NCBI GenBank assembly: GCA_965224485.1
Contig: CBDCZH010000001.1
Location: 32,001 to 96,000, forward strand
DNA: 64,000 nt
Reading direction: 5' to 3'
DNA from: Arcobacteraceae bacterium
Lineage (GTDB): Bacteria > Campylobacterota > Campylobacteria > Campylobacterales > Arcobacteraceae
The notes under the pieces were generated by a model that had not been told where the DNA came from, searched no databases, and saw only the letters and a list, made by a program, of their open reading frames with translations. Positions 30,151-39,098 of this stretch are shown one piece after another (position 1 is the first letter of the stretch; each line of letters starts with the position of its first letter). The position numbers and the translations under genes are program-made.

Positions 30151-31394
30151 TAATCTTATCTCTTTTTGTTTGTATATCTTTTGCAAATGAAAATTCATAT
30201 AAAAAACTTCATGTAAAAGAAGATTTATATATAGTTTTTGCCCTAGAGTATGAAAAAAGCTCTAATTTCAATGCATCACGTGAACTTTTTTTAAAACTTT
30301 ATACCTTAACAAATAAATATGAATACCTCTTAAAGTATCTTCGAACTTCTTTATCTTTAAAAAAATTCAAAGATGTAAATAAATATGCTTCAAAAAATTT
30401 AAAAGAAAATGAAAAAGAGTATGAAATAGTATTAAGAATTTACTGTATCTCTTTATTAAATACAAAAGAGGTAAATAAAGCTTTTTTAATTGCAAGTACC
30501 TTAATTAAAAAATTTAATAATGCAATAAACTATGAACTAATGGCAAATGTTTATTTTGTAAAAGAAGATTTTAATAATGCAAAGAAGTATTATGAGAGTG
30601 CTTATGTTATGAGTAAAAAACCTTCTAATTTATTTAATCTTGTAAATATTTTATATGCTTATTTAGATAAAAAAGAACAAGCTATCTCATACTTAGAAAC
30701 ATATGTTCGTTTATATGGTTGTACTTCTATAGTATGCAATAAACTTTTATCAATTTATCAAGAACAAAATAATATAGATGGTTCAATTTCAATTTTAAAA
30801 AGATCATATTTTGAGTTTAAAGAAAAAAAGCAAAATGCAAATGCTATAAAAGTATATAAACTTCTAATAGCATATTTAGAGAAAAAAGATATAAAAGAAG
30901 CAATTAAGTTTTTAGAAGAAAATCCCCATGACTCTTATAAGTTAATATCTTTATATAAAAGAACAAATCAAAATAAAAAAGCTTTAGTTTTAGTAAAAAA
31001 ACTTTATGAAGAAACTGGAAATATAGACTTACTTGCACAAATTGCAATTTTAGAATTTGAAAGTGCAAAGAATAAAGAAATTGTTATAAAATCTGTTATA
31101 AAAAAGTTTGAATCAGTTTTAGTAGTTTTAAATAACCATGTTTATCAAAACTATCTTGCTTATATTTTAATTGATTTTGAAATAGATGTAAAAAAAGGTT
31201 TAGCTTTAGTTAAAAAAGCACTAGAACAAGCTCCTAATAATATAGCATATTTAGACTCCCTTGCTTGGGGTTTATATAAAGATAATAAATGCAGCGATGC
31301 TTATAGTATTATGCAAAAAATAGTAGATGAGGTTGGTTTAAGTGATAATGAAATAAAACATCATTGGAAAAAAATTAAAGGTTGTAAAAAATAA
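30126..31394 (+). CDS. TPR-repeat exported protein
   Basis: signal peptide; helical repeats ending NYLAYILID...[11 protein letters not shown]. Confidence 0.8.
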
Positions 31395-33581: not shown

Positions 33582-34489
33582 TTAAAAACTCTTTATTTCA
33601 TCATTGTTATTGTTTTTTAATTCATCAACTAGTTCATCTTTTGTATGTAAATATAATTTATACTGACTTGCGAAAATATGTTCATTATCTTGAGGCAAAG
33701 AATATTGAACTACTTTTTCATTTTTATCATTACAAAGTAGTATTCCTATTGTTTTATTGTCATCACTATTTTTTATCTCTCTATCAAAATAATTTACATA
33801 CATTTGCAATTGACCTAAATCTTGGTGTTTAATTTTCTAGTTTTAAGCTCAATAATTACATAACACTTTAAAGGAATATTATAAAATACCAAATCAGCAA
33901 AATAACTATCTTCACTTAATGTCAAACGATATTGTCTTTTTACAAATGCAAAACCACGACCAAGTTCTAGTAAAAACTTTTCAAGATGTTCAATTAGTCT
34001 GTCTTTTAAAACTTTTTCATTGTTATTTGTGATTTCATCAAGTCCAAAAAACCCAATATATAAGGGTCTTTTATAATATCTTTTGGTTTCCTTTGAGCTG
34101 TTGTTTCTAACTCTTTTTTTTTCTTTAATTCTTAATATCGTATTGTTTTGTATCTCTTTTTGCAGTTGCCGTACTGTTAGGTTTTGCTCAATTGCATACT
34201 TTTCATAAAACTTCATTTCATTATTATCAAGTCTCATAAGATAAGTATAGTGTGTAAAAGATAGTTTAAATGTAGATTCGCCAGTCAATGACTGGCTTTT
34301 TTGCAAATCCAATTCTCCCGTCATTGACTGGAGTTTTTTATAAAACTATCTGCAATCTTTTATAGTAGAAACAGAAAAACCTTTTCCATATTTTAAAGTA
34401 AGTTTTTTAGATAAGTTTTGAATATTTCCAATCTTACTTTTAGCATCTTCTATTTCATTATATTGAGCTATTAATAAATCTTTTATCAT
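33582..34489 (-). pseudogene. YhcG/DUF1016 PD-(D/E)xK nuclease, disrupted
   Basis: LSKKLTLKYGKGFS..*FY (TAG at 34346-34348), LSFTHY, FLLELGRGFAFV.RQ, DLVFY, IELK, QMYVNY, IGILLC; several frameshifts. Confidence 0.88.
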
Positions 34490-34610
34490 AAAATACTTTT
34501 ATATTTTTTTATAAAAACTATCTTGTTTATGTTCATATCTTCTAAAAATAGCCCAAGAAATATAATTAACAATTTATAAGTTTACATTTGAAGGACTAGA
34601 ATGATGAAAA
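34490..34610 (-). pseudogene. remnant resembling the C-terminus of a DUF3800 protein
   Basis: translates FHHSSPSNVNL*IVNYISWAIFRRYE..FYKKI*, like the LQxxDYxxWAIFRKYE pattern. Confidence 0.45.
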
Positions 34611-34681
34611 TATCATATCTTATAAAATATCTTCTTAATTGTATCTCTAAAATTTCTTATATCTTGTTACGTAAAATTCCT

Positions 34682-36415
34682 TTATTCATATTCGGGTTTT
34701 GGTTCAGCTACCAAAATATTTTCATAATTATTTATCTTATGCTGTGGAATAAACTTTTTAAAATAGTTTTCTAAATTTTTATCATAACAGTATATATAGG
34801 TACCTTTTATTCCTCGATACATAATAGTTTTATAAATATTAATTATGTATTCATGTAGTTGAGTTAAATTAATTCCCGCTTTCCCATTTCTATCATAATA
34901 ATTTTCTTTTTTAGTTTCAATTAGTTTTGTTTTGTTATTGTAGATTATATCGCTTCCAAAGATAACTCCAGCGTAGTTTAAATCATAGCCTTGGGTAGTA
35001 TGTATACATCCCATTTCATTCATTTTACTTGTTGAATTAATCCAATCTTTATTTGTTCTATTCCAATATAAATCTACCCCATCAATTATAACATCTGGTT
35101 GTGCTGTTTTATTTGAAATCCATTTCCATGAATATCCAGAAATTGTTCTACATAATCCATGTTTTTTTTCTTTAATACTTAATTCTGTTATCATATCTTT
35201 CATTGAAGCAAAAAGTTTTAAATCATAATTCTTAGATTTCCATATATCTATTTTTTTGTTTGAAGATAAAAGGTTATTAATAAATTTAATATAATCTTCT
35301 CCTCCTTCAACTCTCATTTGAGATTTTAGTTCAATTGTTATGGAGTATGATTTTATTTTGTCAAATTCAGTTTGTTCCACATCTGAAGGTCTAATTGATT
35401 GCTTTTTATCATAAAAAAATAATTGATTATCACTTGAAAGTTGAATCCAATCTAGTTCATTACCTTTCACTTTATCTAAATTAAAAGATTTATTTGTTTT
35501 ATCGAATTCACCATAGCCAGTTATGTTTTTCCTTCTTTTTAATCTATGTGCTTCATCTACTATTAAAATATCATAATAATCATGTTTAACTTCATTTGGC
35601 CCAATTACTAATTTTTGAGATAATCCGTGAATACTTTTAAATACTTTTTGTAATGTTTTTCTTAAAGATGTCATAGGAATAACAAGTGCTATTTTTAACT
35701 CTTCTTTATTTCTTTTTAGTTTGTTTTTTACCTCTTGAGCTAATTCTATTAAGGAACTAACTTCAAAGTTATCTTCTAAGTCATCACTATTTATATCACT
35801 TAATAGAAGCTTGATAAGATATACTGCAAGTATAGTTTTTCCGGTTCCTGCACTACCTTGAATAAAAGTACTTGTTTCATTTTTTGAATTATTTAGTATA
35901 AAAAGATATTCTCTTATTGCATTATATTGATCTTCTGATAATTGCTTATATGGTGAGTATTTAAATAGGTCAGAATTTTGAATATTAAGAAGATCATTTT
36001 TTACTAGTTTTTCAAATTGTAAATTCTTCCAAATATTTTGAAAAGTATCTTCATATTTATTCTTTTGATAATATTGATGATTTGAAATACCATCATTTGC
36101 ATTTAGAAGTTTAAATTGATTATCTGCAAGCATATTTTGAATTAAACTTGATTCAATATCAAGAACAGAAGATTTATTAAAGTATTGGCTAAAAATAATT
36201 TTTATATTCTTTAGTTGCTTTTTTTCAGAATTGGATAAATGTTGCTTTACTCTATTTAAAATATTTGTTGTTTCTCCTATATACGCTTTTTTACTTTTTT
36301 TACAGTAAATGATATATACTGTTGGAAAAATATAATATGTTGGCATTTCTTCTTTTATCTGGTTAAATGAGGAATGATCAAAGATATAATCTTTTGTTAA
36401 GTATTCAAATGACAT
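34682..36415 (-). CDS. GIY-YIG nuclease fused to DUF2075 (Schlafen group-3-like) P-loop helicase
   Basis: VYII...AYIGET..R..QH; Walker A GSAGTGKT; Walker B VDEAHRL; LKSQMRV; CIHTTQGYDLNY; RGIKGTY. Confidence 0.88.
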   Translation of the reverse strand: MSFEYLTKDYIFDHSSFNQIKEEMPTYYIFPTVYIIYCKKSKKAYIGETTNILNRVKQHLSNSEKKQLKNIKIIFSQYFNKSSVLDIESSLIQNMLADNQFKLLNANDGISNHQYYQKNKYEDTFQNIWKNLQFEKLVKNDLLNIQNSDLFKYSPYKQLSEDQYNAIREYLFILNNSKNETSTFIQGSAGTGKTILAVYLIKLLLSDINSDDLEDNFEVSSLIELAQEVKNKLKRNKEELKIALVIPMTSLRKTLQKVFKSIHGLSQKLVIGPNEVKHDYYDILIVDEAHRLKRRKNITGYGEFDKTNKSFNLDKVKGNELDWIQLSSDNQLFFYDKKQSIRPSDVEQTEFDKIKSYSITIELKSQMRVEGGEDYIKFINNLLSSNKKIDIWKSKNYDLKLFASMKDMITELSIKEKKHGLCRTISGYSWKWISNKTAQPDVIIDGVDLYWNRTNKDWINSTSKMNEMGCIHTTQGYDLNYAGVIFGSDIIYNNKTKLIETKKENYYDRNGKAGINLTQLHEYIINIYKTIMYRGIKGTYIYCYDKNLENYFKKFIPQHKINNYENILVAEPKPEYE

Positions 36416-36759
36416 TAAATTTCTGTGTACTTTCTAAAGTTTCCTTTAATCTTTTCAATTGGATATTTTTTTTCATTTTTTTTCATCTTTTCTAATATTG
36501 CATCTTCTAAATTTATATCTAATTTCATACATAATTTAATCAGATAAATAGCGATATCTGCTATCTCATCTTTTGTATGAGCTTTATTTTCAATACTTAG
36601 ATTTTTAGATTCTTGCTCATCCATCCATTGAAATATTTCATTAAGTTCACCTATCTCCCCAGATAGAGCCATGATTAAATTTTTTGGAGAATGATATTTA
36701 TCCCATTCTCTTTCTTCAGAAAAGTTTTTAATTATGTGCTCTATATTTTTTAAGTTCAT
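36415..36759 (-). CDS. MazG-like nucleotide pyrophosphohydrolase
   Basis: EREWDKYHSPKNL..L..EIGEL.E.FQW, DEIAD, KM.KNE.KYP; 1-nt overlap with the helicase gene. Confidence 0.92.
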   Translation of the reverse strand: MNLKNIEHIIKNFSEEREWDKYHSPKNLIMALSGEIGELNEIFQWMDEQESKNLSIENKAHTKDEIADIAIYLIKLCMKLDINLEDAILEKMKKNEKKYPIEKIKGNFRKYTEI

Positions 36760-36866
36760 AAAGTATTCCTAATATAAATTATTATTAAATAATTTTACTA
36801 TAATTAATTAAATTTTTTGCTTATAGAAATTGTTATGATTAGTGAGAGTTTTTCATTTTATTGCAA

Positions 36867-36895
36867 TTGACTTAACTTAATATATCTGATATAAT
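36867..36895 (+). promoter_or_regulatory. sigma70 promoter antisense to PemK-like toxin 1
   Basis: TTGACT-17bp-TATAAT with extended TG. Confidence 0.8.
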
Positions 36896-36901
36896 ATTCG
36901 T

Positions 36902-36941
36902 ATAATTTCCTTCGGGACTGCCCTCTTAATTTTTAAGAGGG
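36902..36941 (+). ncRNA. putative small structured antisense RNA, copy 1 (3' end unknown)
   Basis: AUAAUU-UCC[UUCG]GGA-CUG-CCCUCUUAA[UUU]UUAAGAGGG, starting 7 nt after the -10; covaries with copy 2. Confidence 0.6.
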
Positions 36942-36947
36942 AGAAAA

Positions 36948-37334
36948 TCATAAATCTAATAGCTTTTTTAATTTTTTCCTTAAATTACTAAAATAAGCTT
37001 TATTTATTACTCCTACTTTTGTATCCAATCTTTTTACATCATAAATTTTAGCTTGTACTAATAGTGCATTACTTTGTATATTATTTAAGTTAAAGTTGTA
37101 GAAAAAACTTCCCTCTTTTATTTTTGTTGATAAGGGTACACCTAAAAATAAATCCCTATTCAATTTTTGAATTATTAATATAGGTCTTGAAAAATCCTTC
37201 CCTTTCCCATTTTGTTCAGAGCCAATATTTTCACCTATACTTGCCCAATAAATTTCCCTATTTTTTACGTTGATGGTATTTACTCTTTTATCTACTTGTT
37301 TTTTAACTTCATTCCATTCATCAAAATCTTTCAT
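36948..37334 (-). CDS. PemK/MazF-like toxin 1, no protein antitoxin
   Basis: MKDFDEWN, REIYWASIGENIGSEQ.GKG..F.RPILII, GVPLST, LVQAK..D.KRL. Confidence 0.85.
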   Translation of the reverse strand: MKDFDEWNEVKKQVDKRVNTINVKNREIYWASIGENIGSEQNGKGKDFSRPILIIQKLNRDLFLGVPLSTKIKEGSFFYNFNLNNIQSNALLVQAKIYDVKRLDTKVGVINKAYFSNLRKKLKKLLDL

Positions 37335-37990
37335 AATAATTCTTCTTCTTTAAAAGAGAAAAATCCATCTTTACTAAGTATTACATGGTCTAAAAATTCT
37401 ATTCCTAATATCTTTGCACTTGTTTGTAGTCTTTTTGTTATATTTATATCTTCACTACTTGGTTTTAGAATGGAAGAGGGGTGATTATGAGCAACTATTA
37501 TACTTGCACAGCGTTTTTGTATTGCATATGAGAATACTTCCCTTGGATGCACCAAGGATTGGTTTAATGTGCCTATACTTATTACTTTTGTAGCTACTAT
37601 ATTATTTGCTCCATCTAAATAGATACTTAAGAAGTATTCTTGTTTTTTATTATGATACTTTTTTAGGTGAATATATATATCTTTTGCTGTTTTGATTTGT
37701 ACTTTTGTTTTACTTAGGTATCTTTTTGATAATTCAAGGGCTGATAATATTTGGGAGGCTTTACTTAAACCTAAACCATGAATTGCTGTTAGTTTTTCTA
37801 AACTTAGGTTTTGAAAGTCTTTTTCAAAAAGTTTTATTATTTCTTTTGATAAATTCAAAACATCTTTTTGTTTTGTTCCACTTCCTAGAATGATTGAGAG
37901 AAGTTCATAATCTTTTAAAGAAGATATTCCATTTTTGATAAGTTTTTCTCTTGGTTTATCTATATTGTTTAAATTTTTGATTGTTTCCAT
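37331..37990 (-). CDS. radC: RadC-family JAB/MPN protein
   Basis: PREKL, ELLSIILGSG, HhH GLG, VHPREVF, AHNHPS...S.ED, LDHVI. Confidence 0.95.
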   Translation of the reverse strand: METIKNLNNIDKPREKLIKNGISSLKDYELLSIILGSGTKQKDVLNLSKEIIKLFEKDFQNLSLEKLTAIHGLGLSKASQILSALELSKRYLSKTKVQIKTAKDIYIHLKKYHNKKQEYFLSIYLDGANNIVATKVISIGTLNQSLVHPREVFSYAIQKRCASIIVAHNHPSSILKPSSEDINITKRLQTSAKILGIEFLDHVILSKDGFFSFKEEELL

Positions 37991-38000
37991 TTTCTCTCCT

Positions 38001-38029
38001 TTGACTTAATAGCCGTTATCTGATATAAT
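38001..38029 (+). promoter_or_regulatory. sigma70 promoter antisense to PemK-like toxin 2
   Basis: TTGACT-17bp-TATAAT with extended TG; shares tatctgatataata with copy 1. Confidence 0.8.
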
Positions 38030-38035
38030 ACATAC

Positions 38036-38074
38036 ATAATTCGCCTTCGGGCACACCCACTTTTTTCAAGTGGG
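38036..38074 (+). ncRNA. putative small structured antisense RNA, copy 2 (3' end unknown)
   Basis: AUAAUU-C-GCC[UUCG]GGC-ACA-CCCACUU[UUUUC]AAGUGGG; second hairpin overlaps the toxin stop codon. Confidence 0.6.
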
Positions 38075-38470
38075 GCTAATTATTCCTCGTAGTTTTAAAA
38101 TAATTTCTTCAAAATCTTTTTTATTTACTATTCCTATTTTGTTCATTAGTCTTTTTATACTAAAAACTTTTACTTGTAGTATCATTGCAGAATTTTTAGT
38201 TTCACCATTTTGTTTATTTGTATATGTAAACTTGTGAAAATAATCATTGTTTTTTATTGTACTGGTAATTTGAACCCCAATAAATAAATCGCTTGTAAGT
38301 TTTCTTATTATAATTATAGGTCTTGCAAAGTTTTTATCTTTGCCATATTCTTCGCTTCCAATATTCAAACCTATTTTTGCCCAAAATATTTCGCGAGATT
38401 TAATTCCTAGTTCTCTTTCATTTGTAGAACATTTCTTTTTTATTTCATTCCAATTATCGTAATCTTTCAT
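38066..38470 (-). CDS. PemK/MazF-like toxin 2, no protein antitoxin
   Basis: MKDYDNWN, REIFWAKIGLNIGSEEYGK...F.RPIIII, ILQVK.FS.KRL; paralogous to 36948-37334. Confidence 0.85.
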   Translation of the reverse strand: MKDYDNWNEIKKKCSTNERELGIKSREIFWAKIGLNIGSEEYGKDKNFARPIIIIRKLTSDLFIGVQITSTIKNNDYFHKFTYTNKQNGETKNSAMILQVKVFSIKRLMNKIGIVNKKDFEEIILKLRGIISPT

Positions 38471-38540
38471 AACTGTCCTTTATTAGAATAAAGTATAGTA
38501 TAAAATAATTAAAAAAGTAATTTAATTTGGAACTAAACTA

Positions 38541-39098
38541 TTAAAGGGAGCTTTTAATGGATTTTAAAATACTTTCTTGTCGATTTATTTTGGAATCACT
38601 TCTTAGAAAGATACTTGTTAAGTTCTTATCTATTACTTTTATATAAAACTTTTTAATATAGGGATAGCTATAAGTTTTATTCATAGTTTGAGTTGATAGT
38701 TTTTTTATTGGATAAATTTGCATTAAAATAAAAAGTACAAAAGAGATTACTAATATTGCTTCTAAAAAAGATATGATTTTTGCTAGTAGTATTTTTATTC
38801 TTGCACTTGAAATTAGGTAATTTAGTGCTTTAAGAATATATTTAAAACTATAAATTAAGATAAGTAAATTGATAAAAAAAGCTAATAATATAGCTATATA
38901 ATATGTATCAGCTCTTAAAATATTTACTTTTGATAAAAAAGTATAAGTTTCATAGGAGAAAGAAGAAGATAAAAATATAAATAAAAATATTTTTATATAA
39001 TCAAATACTTTTATATACGTTCTTTTTATATAATTAAAATACGAGAAAAAAACAATGGCTAGAAAAAATAACAAATCAATAATAAAGTAATACTTCAT
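38541..39098 (-). CDS. membrane protein, possibly CvpA-like
   Basis: about four TM segments, N-terminal IIDL; weak resemblance only. Confidence 0.5.
   Translation of the reverse strand: MKYYFIIDLLFFLAIVFFSYFNYIKRTYIKVFDYIKIFLFIFLSSSFSYETYTFLSKVNILRADTYYIAILLAFFINLLILIYSFKYILKALNYLISSARIKILLAKIISFLEAILVISFVLFILMQIYPIKKLSTQTMNKTYSYPYIKKFYIKVIDKNLTSIFLRSDSKINRQESILKSIKSSL

Follow-up and report, generated by a model that had tools for sequence, protein, structure and literature searches.

What keeps a MazF-like toxin in check when no antitoxin gene lies beside it? The question is raised by a locus in a stretch of 64,000 nucleotides from an Arcobacteraceae bacterium (assembly GCA_965224485.1, contig CBDCZH010000001.1, positions 32,001 to 96,000; the whole stretch is referred to here as the window), where two toxin genes of the PemK/MazF type, tox1 and tox2, which are paralogues of 44% identity (alignment A4), each face at their 3' end, on the opposite strand, a promoter followed by a predicted RNA of two hairpins. 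The evidence that follows settles that a conserved, separately promoted and structured RNA stands at the 3' end of these toxins, that no protein partner accompanies them and that a plasmid-borne counterpart of the RNA is abundantly expressed. The RNA is very probably an antitoxin, of a little-studied kind that has already been reported; to the more particular reading that it acts as a cis-antisense (type I-like) antitoxin on the 3' end of the toxin mRNA we give a probability of about 0.5.

The initial annotation of the locus had described the toxins as lacking a small antitoxin gene upstream, one having radC in that place and the other a 70-nt spacer, and the list of open reading frames (ORFs) of the window bears this out: no small ORF adjoins tox1 or tox2, the end of radC overlaps the start of tox1 by 4 nt and the spacer upstream of tox2 measures 70 nt. 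The wider family is likewise without a conserved protein partner. Across 116 toxin copies in 109 loci (about 15 of these loci are the same place fetched twice) no recurring small ORF was seen upstream of the toxin, and a MazE/PemI-type gene is neither present beside the toxins of the window nor conserved beside the 116 copies. The 81 upstream ORFs of at least 90 amino acids belong to more than 35 unrelated groups, among them RadC, methylases, helicases and housekeeping proteins such as phosphoglycerate kinase, and the genes downstream (70 ORFs) vary as well. Since the neighbours on both sides vary, toxin and RNA behave as a cassette complete in itself, about 500 bp long, which is found behind many different genes, often those of restriction or defence. 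A MazG-like gene, which lies downstream of tox1 in the window, was considered as a conserved partner and rejected, being represented in none of the 70 downstream ORFs.

The RNA module, by contrast with any protein gene, is constant. Toxin homologues (E <= 1e-5) occur in 64 of the 184 genomes of the bacterium's own family, and toxin matches were found in 46 of 401 sampled Campylobacterota genomes, across nine of 14 families. Looking 3' of the toxin homologues had been proposed as a check on the initial annotation, and the complete module of promoter, start motif and two hairpins is present behind 33 of 34 homologues of 40-85% identity (30 loci); at the 34th (L030, G070:C49) the promoter region is a run of N and the hairpins are kept. 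A covariance model, R1, built from the RNA part alone, gives the two window copies 55.5 bits (RNA 1) and 66.1 bits (RNA 2). Scanned over 151 genomes of the family at E <= 0.01, it returned 90 matches, 67 of which abut a toxin match, all 67 in convergent orientation. In a set of 80 loci drawn from the whole phylum, including Sulfuricurvum, Sulfurimonas, Sulfurospirillum, Sulfurovum and Arcobacter, R1 matches 77 at E <= 1, and 70 of these at E <= 0.01, on the strand opposite the toxin and mostly at its 3' end, the exception being a weak stray match on the plus strand of L154. Of the three loci missed, one is a contig end and two carry a TTGAC-17-TATAAT promoter with two hairpins of wholly different sequence. 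A diverged two-hairpin module was seen at the same place in most of 20 extra toxin loci, the majority of them from scanned genomes without an RNA match there and some from outside the R1 scan; most of those that lack it are toxin domains joined to a sugar cytidylyltransferase. The classes of RNA follow the clades of toxin, UCC..GGA with the linker CUG or CGA accompanying tox1-type and GCC..GGC with ACA accompanying tox2-type proteins.

That the structure of this RNA, on the strand opposite the toxin, is under selection is indicated by its pattern of substitution. In alignment A2 (MAFFT, 30 copies, 10 consensus pairs) 99.3% of cells are paired, six of the 10 pairs vary on both sides and the covariation score was reached by none of 500 shuffles, while sliding the pairings by 1-3 columns leaves at most 58% of cells paired. 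A wider alignment, A5, in which covariation is seen at nine of 10 pairs and pairing in 98.4% of cells, is biased toward the structure, having been fitted to the covariance model. Both agree with the compensatory stem changes that the initial annotation had noted between the two window copies. The strand is indicated by three independent observations: the wobble cells are biased (29 GU/UG against 4 AC/CA), the hairpin-1 loop, which is UUCG in 65 and UACG in four of 84 distinct sequences, belongs to the UNCG class only when read opposite the toxin, as had been pointed out for the window, and the promoter is oriented accordingly. That promoter is itself conserved, in keeping with the earlier claim that each toxin is faced by one: at least 9/12 of the consensus is reached by 72 of the 82 copies, compared with 5.1% of 2000 randomly chosen places, its -10 box is perfect in 56 of the 82 and its distance from the RNA is fixed in 69.

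These observations bear on the view that the RNA is not an antitoxin at all, its hairpins serving as a bidirectional terminator or stabiliser, or the protein serving to process the RNA, with the toxin checked by a RadC-like protein or by nothing. RadC is the commonest upstream neighbour and in the window is translationally coupled to the toxin, and hairpin 2 abuts the stop codon, which is the usual site of a terminator. However, of the 105 toxin copies with an ORF upstream only 27 have RadC there (downstream it stands at five of 70), for which reason it was rejected as a general protein antitoxin, and the module is unchanged where RadC is missing. A terminator would need no consensus promoter at a fixed distance of 4 nt, the strand indicated by the wobble pairs and UNCG loops is not that of the toxin mRNA but the opposite one, and an antisense RNA on the plasmid of a homologue, CjrA, is cited as an RNA antitoxin (PMC10470494), its equation with the RNA CJpv3 of that plasmid being our own. 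We hold this view to be very improbable.

The module in the window has the same parts at both toxins, with the promoters, start motifs and hairpins lying where the initial annotation had put them (Table 1). Both promoters are the best sigma-70-like sites in 36300-38700, being the sole 11/12 matches among seven promoter-like sites, and the -35 box of the second lies just upstream of the ribosome-binding site of radC on the opposite strand. In each copy ATAATT begins at the seventh base past the -10 box (36902 and 38036). Hairpin 1, a 3-bp stem with cUUCGg, is separated by a 3-nt linker from hairpin 2, which is GC-rich and has 7-9 bp; the predicted folds reach -14.4 kcal/mol in both RNAs, with z-scores of -2.3 (RNA 1) and -3.4 (RNA 2). 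In copy 1 hairpin 2 ends 6 nt before the tox1 stop codon and is followed by no U run resembling a terminator, and in copy 2 hairpin 2 scores as terminator-like. By analogy with CJpv3, both 3' ends are provisionally placed about 2 nt past the last hairpin. It had also been claimed that no protein gene lies downstream of these promoters on the plus strand; ORFs do exist there (37212-37484, 90 amino acids; 38070-38237, 55 amino acids), but they are antisense frames inside radC and the toxin genes, with no support as genes of their own. A 25-nt pattern of promoter and start has two exact matches in the window, where shuffles would give 0.20 matches with up to 3 mismatches allowed. The corresponding promoter-pattern search of the bacterium's own genome gave only a chance-like site with 3 mismatches, the window copies being unlisted, and R1 is the better tool. 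At tox2-type loci the 3' arm of hairpin 2 also codes for the C-terminus S/G-P-T, which is conserved (38066-38078 in the window); the tail of these proteins appears to be dictated by the structure of the RNA.

The RNA gene also outlasts the toxin. Among the 90 family matches of R1, 23 have no neighbouring toxin match, and we inspected 22 such orphan modules, including two of this genome. Three (L037, L038 and L043) lie beside a more distant toxin. A C-terminal remnant of the toxin with an intact promoter and hairpins is found in the two orphans on contig 15 of this genome, L033 (about 1469-1556, 57.7 bits) and L035 (about 1470-1545, 30.2 bits), and the same pattern recurs in L036, L039, L040, L041, L044, L045, L047, L048, L052, L053 and L055, the likeness of L052 and L053 to the other orphans being limited to the promoter and RNA. 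Such persistence is the pattern of decay expected for an antitoxin. At L033 a canonical PemK toxin of 108 amino acids is encoded nearby (388-714). Two tandem RNA modules were seen behind a single toxin at G070:C49 (2409 and 2636), G119:C106 (11718 and 11945), G066:C5 (97078 and 97157) and L154 (1872-1925 and 1960-2009).

The orphans and the covariation both speak against a further alternative, in which it is transcription itself that matters: the promoter would fire into the toxin gene, silencing it by collision of polymerases or through a long antisense transcript, and the short RNA would be the 5' remnant spared by exonucleases. The promoter is of consensus strength, hairpin 2 of copy 1 lacks a terminator-like U run, and a 3' end 2 nt past a stable hairpin, as mapped for CJpv3, is what exonuclease trimming would leave. 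Covariation at 10 pairs and a UNCG loop, both kept from order to order, would not be expected of a by-product, though, nor would orphan modules be expected to keep their hairpins after the toxin is lost, and hairpin 2 of copy 2 does score as terminator-like. We regard interference of this sort as improbable.

The toxins themselves appear to be a distant branch of the MazF family. Both pass the cut-off of the Pfam PemK_toxin model (23.1 bits; scores in Table 1) and fall far below that of the NCBIfam MazF equivalog (16 bits against a cut-off of 120), and they therefore constitute a distant MazF subfamily. A profile search of the sequences in the Protein Data Bank (PDB) reaches EndoA/MazF at E 1e-4. 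The AlphaFold2 model of toxin 1 (pLDDT 83.8, pTM 0.79) predicts a MazF/Kid fold: compared with the PDB by Foldseek, its top matches are all MazF, EndoA or MoxT structures (probability 1.00, TM 0.64-0.78), the best being Staphylococcus aureus MazF and Bacillus subtilis YdcE/EndoA (TM 0.68-0.78), with Mycobacterium tuberculosis MazF and MoxT also matched. Structures of the ToxN type do not head the Foldseek list, and the window toxins have no match to a ToxN-type family. In 44 sequences R50-P51 is invariant and S/T69-T70 is conserved; these would correspond to the catalytic positions of MazF, the Arg-Pro pair to its catalytic loop. An extra N-terminal helix carries an invariant W7, next to which Asn8 is nearly invariant.

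A protein search of plasmids led to a counterpart for which transcripts have been mapped. Plasmid pVir of Campylobacter jejuni 81-176 carries, at 30634-31038, the gene pVir0047, annotated as a 'type II PemK/MazF family toxin', whose product is 54% identical to tox1 over 102 amino acids (BLASTP, E 5e-31), including the N-terminal FDEWNEVKK, and aligns with the toxin over 126 columns in hhalign (probability 99.9%). Opposite pVir0047 and past its stop codon stands TTGATT-17-TGATATAAT, and from this sequence alone we predicted that transcription begins at 31119 (minus strand). Differential RNA sequencing and a positive Northern blot place there CJpv3, an RNA of 77 nt at 31119-31043 on the minus strand (Dugar et al. 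2013, PMC3656092, Table S12), whose mapped start is the predicted position. The step height at this start is 16164, compared with 28 at the toxin start, 30608 (Table S5 of the same paper), which makes the CJpv3 signal about 580 times that of the toxin; the strong expression that the initial annotation had assumed thus holds, according to these tables, for the homologous plasmid locus.

CJpv3 resembles the window RNAs in standing convergent to a toxin of the same subfamily under its own promoter, in starting at the seventh base past the -10 box, as the geometry of the window predicts, and in ending with a GC-rich hairpin beside the toxin stop codon. It differs in being 77 nt long with three predicted hairpins, where the window RNAs have about 43 nt and two, in lacking the cUUCGg hairpin and in being borne by a plasmid, the window locus being chromosomal. 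The last hairpin of its fold is GC-rich; it is followed by 2 nt of RNA, and the stop codon lies 7 nt away from it. R1 does not detect CJpv3, its best score in the pVir locus being 11.1 bits at another place. Other plasmids with homologous toxins carry either a two-hairpin form (Nitratiruptor) or a three-hairpin form (Helicobacter suis), so that both architectures occur within one toxin family.

A 2016 study by Shen et al. (Mol Microbiol 101:909) reportedly described a type I pair, CjrA/CjpT, on pVir. CjrA/CjpT is cited as an RNA antitoxin and protein toxin pair on this plasmid, of type I, in the introduction of PMC10470494, and is cited also in PMC7826846, in one supplement of which cjrA was not found. 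Like the proposed module of the window, it joins an antisense small RNA, as antitoxin, to a toxin that is a protein; pVir0047 and CJpv3 are borne by the same plasmid, and pVir0047 is the sole toxin annotated on the pVir record. We consider it probable that the two pairs are one, CjpT being pVir0047 and CjrA being CJpv3. The remaining pVir RNA with a positive Northern blot in Table S12 of PMC3656092, CJpv2, lies near a hydrophobic ORF of 41 amino acids, pVir0034, which would be the alternative candidate for CjpT; the same laboratory lists CJpv2 apart from CjrA.

How, then, might the RNA act? We propose that the unit is a two-part toxin-antitoxin (TA) module, in which a MazF-fold endoribonuclease is accompanied by a small RNA whose own promoter, a near-consensus sigma-70 site, lies on the opposite strand. 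Transcription would start at the A seven bases past the -10 box, the RNA would fold into the cUUCGg hairpin and the GC-rich hairpin, and it would end a couple of bases past hairpin 2, at the toxin stop codon, giving a length of some 41-43 nt if CJpv3 is a guide. Because its gene lies across from the toxin gene's 3' end, the RNA is complementary throughout to the final codons and the 3' untranslated part of the toxin mRNA; in large excess, it would pair with this mRNA and lower toxin synthesis, whether by cleavage of the duplex, by removal of the 3' hairpins that protect the message, or by the two together. The Bacillus subtilis pairs txpA/RatA and bsrG/SR4, which overlap at their 3' ends, work through such antisense pairing, and the present module is like them in its convergent antisense RNA, complementary to the toxin mRNA and putatively in excess. 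We favour the cis-antisense reading because the position of the RNA is invariant across orders, convergent and abutting or overlapping the stop codon, and because the plasmid pair is classed as type I in print (PMC10470494, introduction). Abutment so strict, over such a span, suggests a requirement in cis.

Several points weigh against this reading. We infer the expression of the RNA in the source organism, its 3' end, and the neutralisation of the toxin together with its mode. CJpv3 ends 5 nt before the toxin stop codon, and antisense action would need a toxin 3' untranslated region that runs across the RNA gene. Loop-loop pairing would be poorly seeded by loops that are U-rich or of the cUUCGg kind. 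Among toxins that share only 40% identity, the sequence of hairpin 1 and of the 5' A(C/U)AAUU stays the same, which exceeds what antisense pairing needs and would suit recognition by a protein. The orphan and tandem copies hint at action in trans. The pVir evidence, too, has its limits: CJpv3 and the window RNAs look alike in architecture and no homology in sequence or structure was found between them, and the identification of CjpT with pVir0047 proceeds largely by elimination.

Most of these points leave room for a type III-like mode: the RNA would bind directly to the MazF-fold protein, inhibiting it or serving as a pseudo-substrate, might be trimmed by the toxin, and would be complementary to the mRNA only as a by-product of compact gene packing. 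The RNA would then be a single-unit, convergent ligand with the 5' A(C/U)AAUU and the cUUCGg hairpin as its recognition elements, which we put forward tentatively, as less than likely. Besides that constancy of sequence beyond pairing, the two RNA classes follow two toxin clades, no U-tract terminator is present, CJpv3, as mapped, ends 2 nt past its last hairpin without overlapping the toxin ORF, orphan and tandem copies persist with intact promoters, and a length of about 43-77 nt is that of single type III antitoxin units. Yet there is no tandem repeat array, only four low-complexity rows of period 10-13 being found in 36300-38800; the RNA is not co-oriented upstream of the toxin, all 67 pairs being convergent; and the toxins match no ToxN-type family. 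The 3-bp stem is probably stable only with C(UUCG)G, so that its constancy need not mean contact with a protein, RNA class and toxin clade are co-inherited, which makes their correlation not independent, and the introduction of PMC10470494 describes the pVir pair as type I. On balance we think direct binding of the protein unlikely. Were it true, the mode would be type III-like with an architecture unlike that of any described type III family, the toxins would be the first subfamily of MazF proper under the control of an RNA ligand, and the orphan copies would act in trans to give immunity to incoming modules.

Pairing of the RNA with the translation start of the toxin, as distinct from its 3' end, is not enriched: over 81 pairs the mean z is -0.16, with two below -2, and the duplex energies are -14.9 kcal/mol for cognate and -15.3 kcal/mol for non-cognate combinations. 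In three radC-linked loci of the tox2 type (L146, L148 and L137) CACACCC in the RNA complements GGGUGUG (7 nt) in the ribosome-binding region of the toxin, with duplexes of -23 to -30 kcal/mol.

Set beside known systems, the module fits type I, though only at the level of the DNA: there it has the mark of the type, an RNA gene that has its own promoter and is complementary to the toxin mRNA. SymE/SymR and RalR/RalA resemble it as type I systems whose toxins are nucleases and not membrane peptides. RalR and SymE are both cited in PMC8594479, the T1TAdb paper, the main text of which mentions neither CjpT nor cjrA, its family list being outside this check. The toxins of the known type I pairs are unrelated to MazF, and their RNAs are longer and overlap the toxin gene more.

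Type II was rejected, no adjacent protein antitoxin gene being found. The toxins share with MazEF and PemIK the MazF fold and sequence family, including the Arg-Pro and Ser/Thr positions, and differ in having the extra N-terminal helix with W7 and no MazE/PemI gene; because no such gene lies beside the toxin, and because of that helix, the database label 'type II' is probably wrong. Type III is represented by ToxIN, CptIN and TenpIN (PMC3401426). In such systems a tandem-repeat RNA precedes the toxin in the same orientation, and a terminator separates the two. The RNA of the window differs in being a single unit, convergent and separately promoted, and its toxin matches PemK, not ToxN. What is shared is a Kid/MazF-like endoribonuclease and a structured RNA in the absence of a protein antitoxin. 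Membership of a type III family was rejected, given the lack of a repeat array, the opposite orientation and the different toxin family.

The initial annotation presented the system as new, which was overstated. Rfam has no match on either window copy at E <= 10, and none on the pVir RNA. CJpv3 is published, however, and CjrA/CjpT on pVir is cited in the articles named above, so that the refuting case which the initial annotation had named, a motif that already matches a described family, is half true. The literature that we consulted holds no account, beyond these citations for pVir, of the structure of the RNA, of its spread through the phylum or of a MazF subfamily with an RNA partner. A 'pemK RNA motif' reportedly described by Weinberg et al. 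in 2017 could bear on this. We therefore describe the window module as a chromosomal, two-hairpin member of a family of which the pVir locus is the sole studied example. The single C. jejuni plasmid example becomes a phylum-wide family, and Rfam lacks the defined, covarying RNA structure given here. In public databases 1718 protein clusters of this sort bear the name 'type II PemK/MazF toxin', yet no protein antitoxin accompanies these toxins and their partner, on the present evidence, is a small RNA, which surveys of genomes for 'orphan' MazF toxins, or for TA systems by type, miss. The value of the work lies in the correction of a widespread annotation, in the definition of an RNA family and in a sharp question between type I and type III, for which the module is a clean system: is a MazF-fold nuclease silenced through its mRNA or by direct binding of RNA?

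Table 1. Elements of the two toxin-RNA modules and neighbouring genes (positions in the window).
Feature	Position	Strand	Remarks
Promoter of RNA 1	36867-36895	plus	TTGACT, 17 nt, TG-TATAAT; 11/12 of consensus, with TG
Promoter of RNA 2	38001-38029	plus	TTGACT, 17 nt, TG-TATAAT; 11/12 of consensus, with TG
Predicted small RNA 1	36902-36943	plus	5' AUAAUU; start and end predicted
Predicted small RNA 2	38036-38076	plus	5' AUAAUU; start and end predicted
RNA 1, hairpin 1	36908-36917	plus	UCC/UUCG/GGA (cUUCGg); followed by linker CUG
RNA 1, hairpin 2	36921-36941	plus	GC-rich
RNA 2, hairpin 1	38043-38052	plus	GCC/UUCG/GGC; followed by 3-nt linker ACA
RNA 2, hairpin 2	38056-38074	plus	holds the tox2 stop codon (38066-38068) and encodes the last tox2 residues
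Toxin 1 (tox1)	36948-37334	minus	128 aa; predicted MazF/PemK fold; PF02452, 35.5 bits
Toxin 2 (tox2)	38066-38470	minus	134 aa; predicted MazF/PemK fold; PF02452, 33 bits
radC	37331-37990	minus	UPF0758_N and RadC JAB domains; between tox2 and tox1
MazG-like pyrophosphohydrolase gene	36415-36759		downstream of tox1
GIY-YIG and Schlafen-group-3 helicase gene	34682-36415		downstream of tox1; weak PADLOC matches PDC-S14, PDC-S41 and AbiO
Truncated YhcG/DUF1016 nuclease ORF	33815-34324		same stretch as the toxin modules

Some relatives of the toxin occur in other settings. In L062 (914-2062, minus strand) and L061 (956-2146, plus strand) a toxin-like domain is in frame with a CMP-sugar cytidylyltransferase-like domain, at the C-terminus in one genome and at the N-terminus in the other, within clusters of sugar-nucleotide genes, and no RNA module lies behind either fusion. 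On plasmid pCH076-80 of Campylobacter coli (L159, 688-1160) a shorter toxin homologue, without the RNA module, has after it, in the same orientation, a 'transcriptional regulator' of 44 amino acids; this is possibly a variant of the toxin family with a protein antitoxin. The initial annotation had thought a role in phage defence possible; viral contigs yielded no relative of the toxin and no match to a 21-nt pattern of the RNA, and so nothing that would speak for carriage by phages or for a decoy.

The neighbourhood in the window has a character of its own. PADLOC has no match for tox1, tox2, RadC or the MazG-like protein. The modules lie in a stretch that resembles a defence island, with the YhcG/DUF1016, GIY-YIG/Schlafen helicase and MazG-like genes in 33815-36759. 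In the window and also in L007, L019, L027 and L031, toxin-RNA modules adjoin radC on one side or on both, and the gene looks like a preferred landing site for them.

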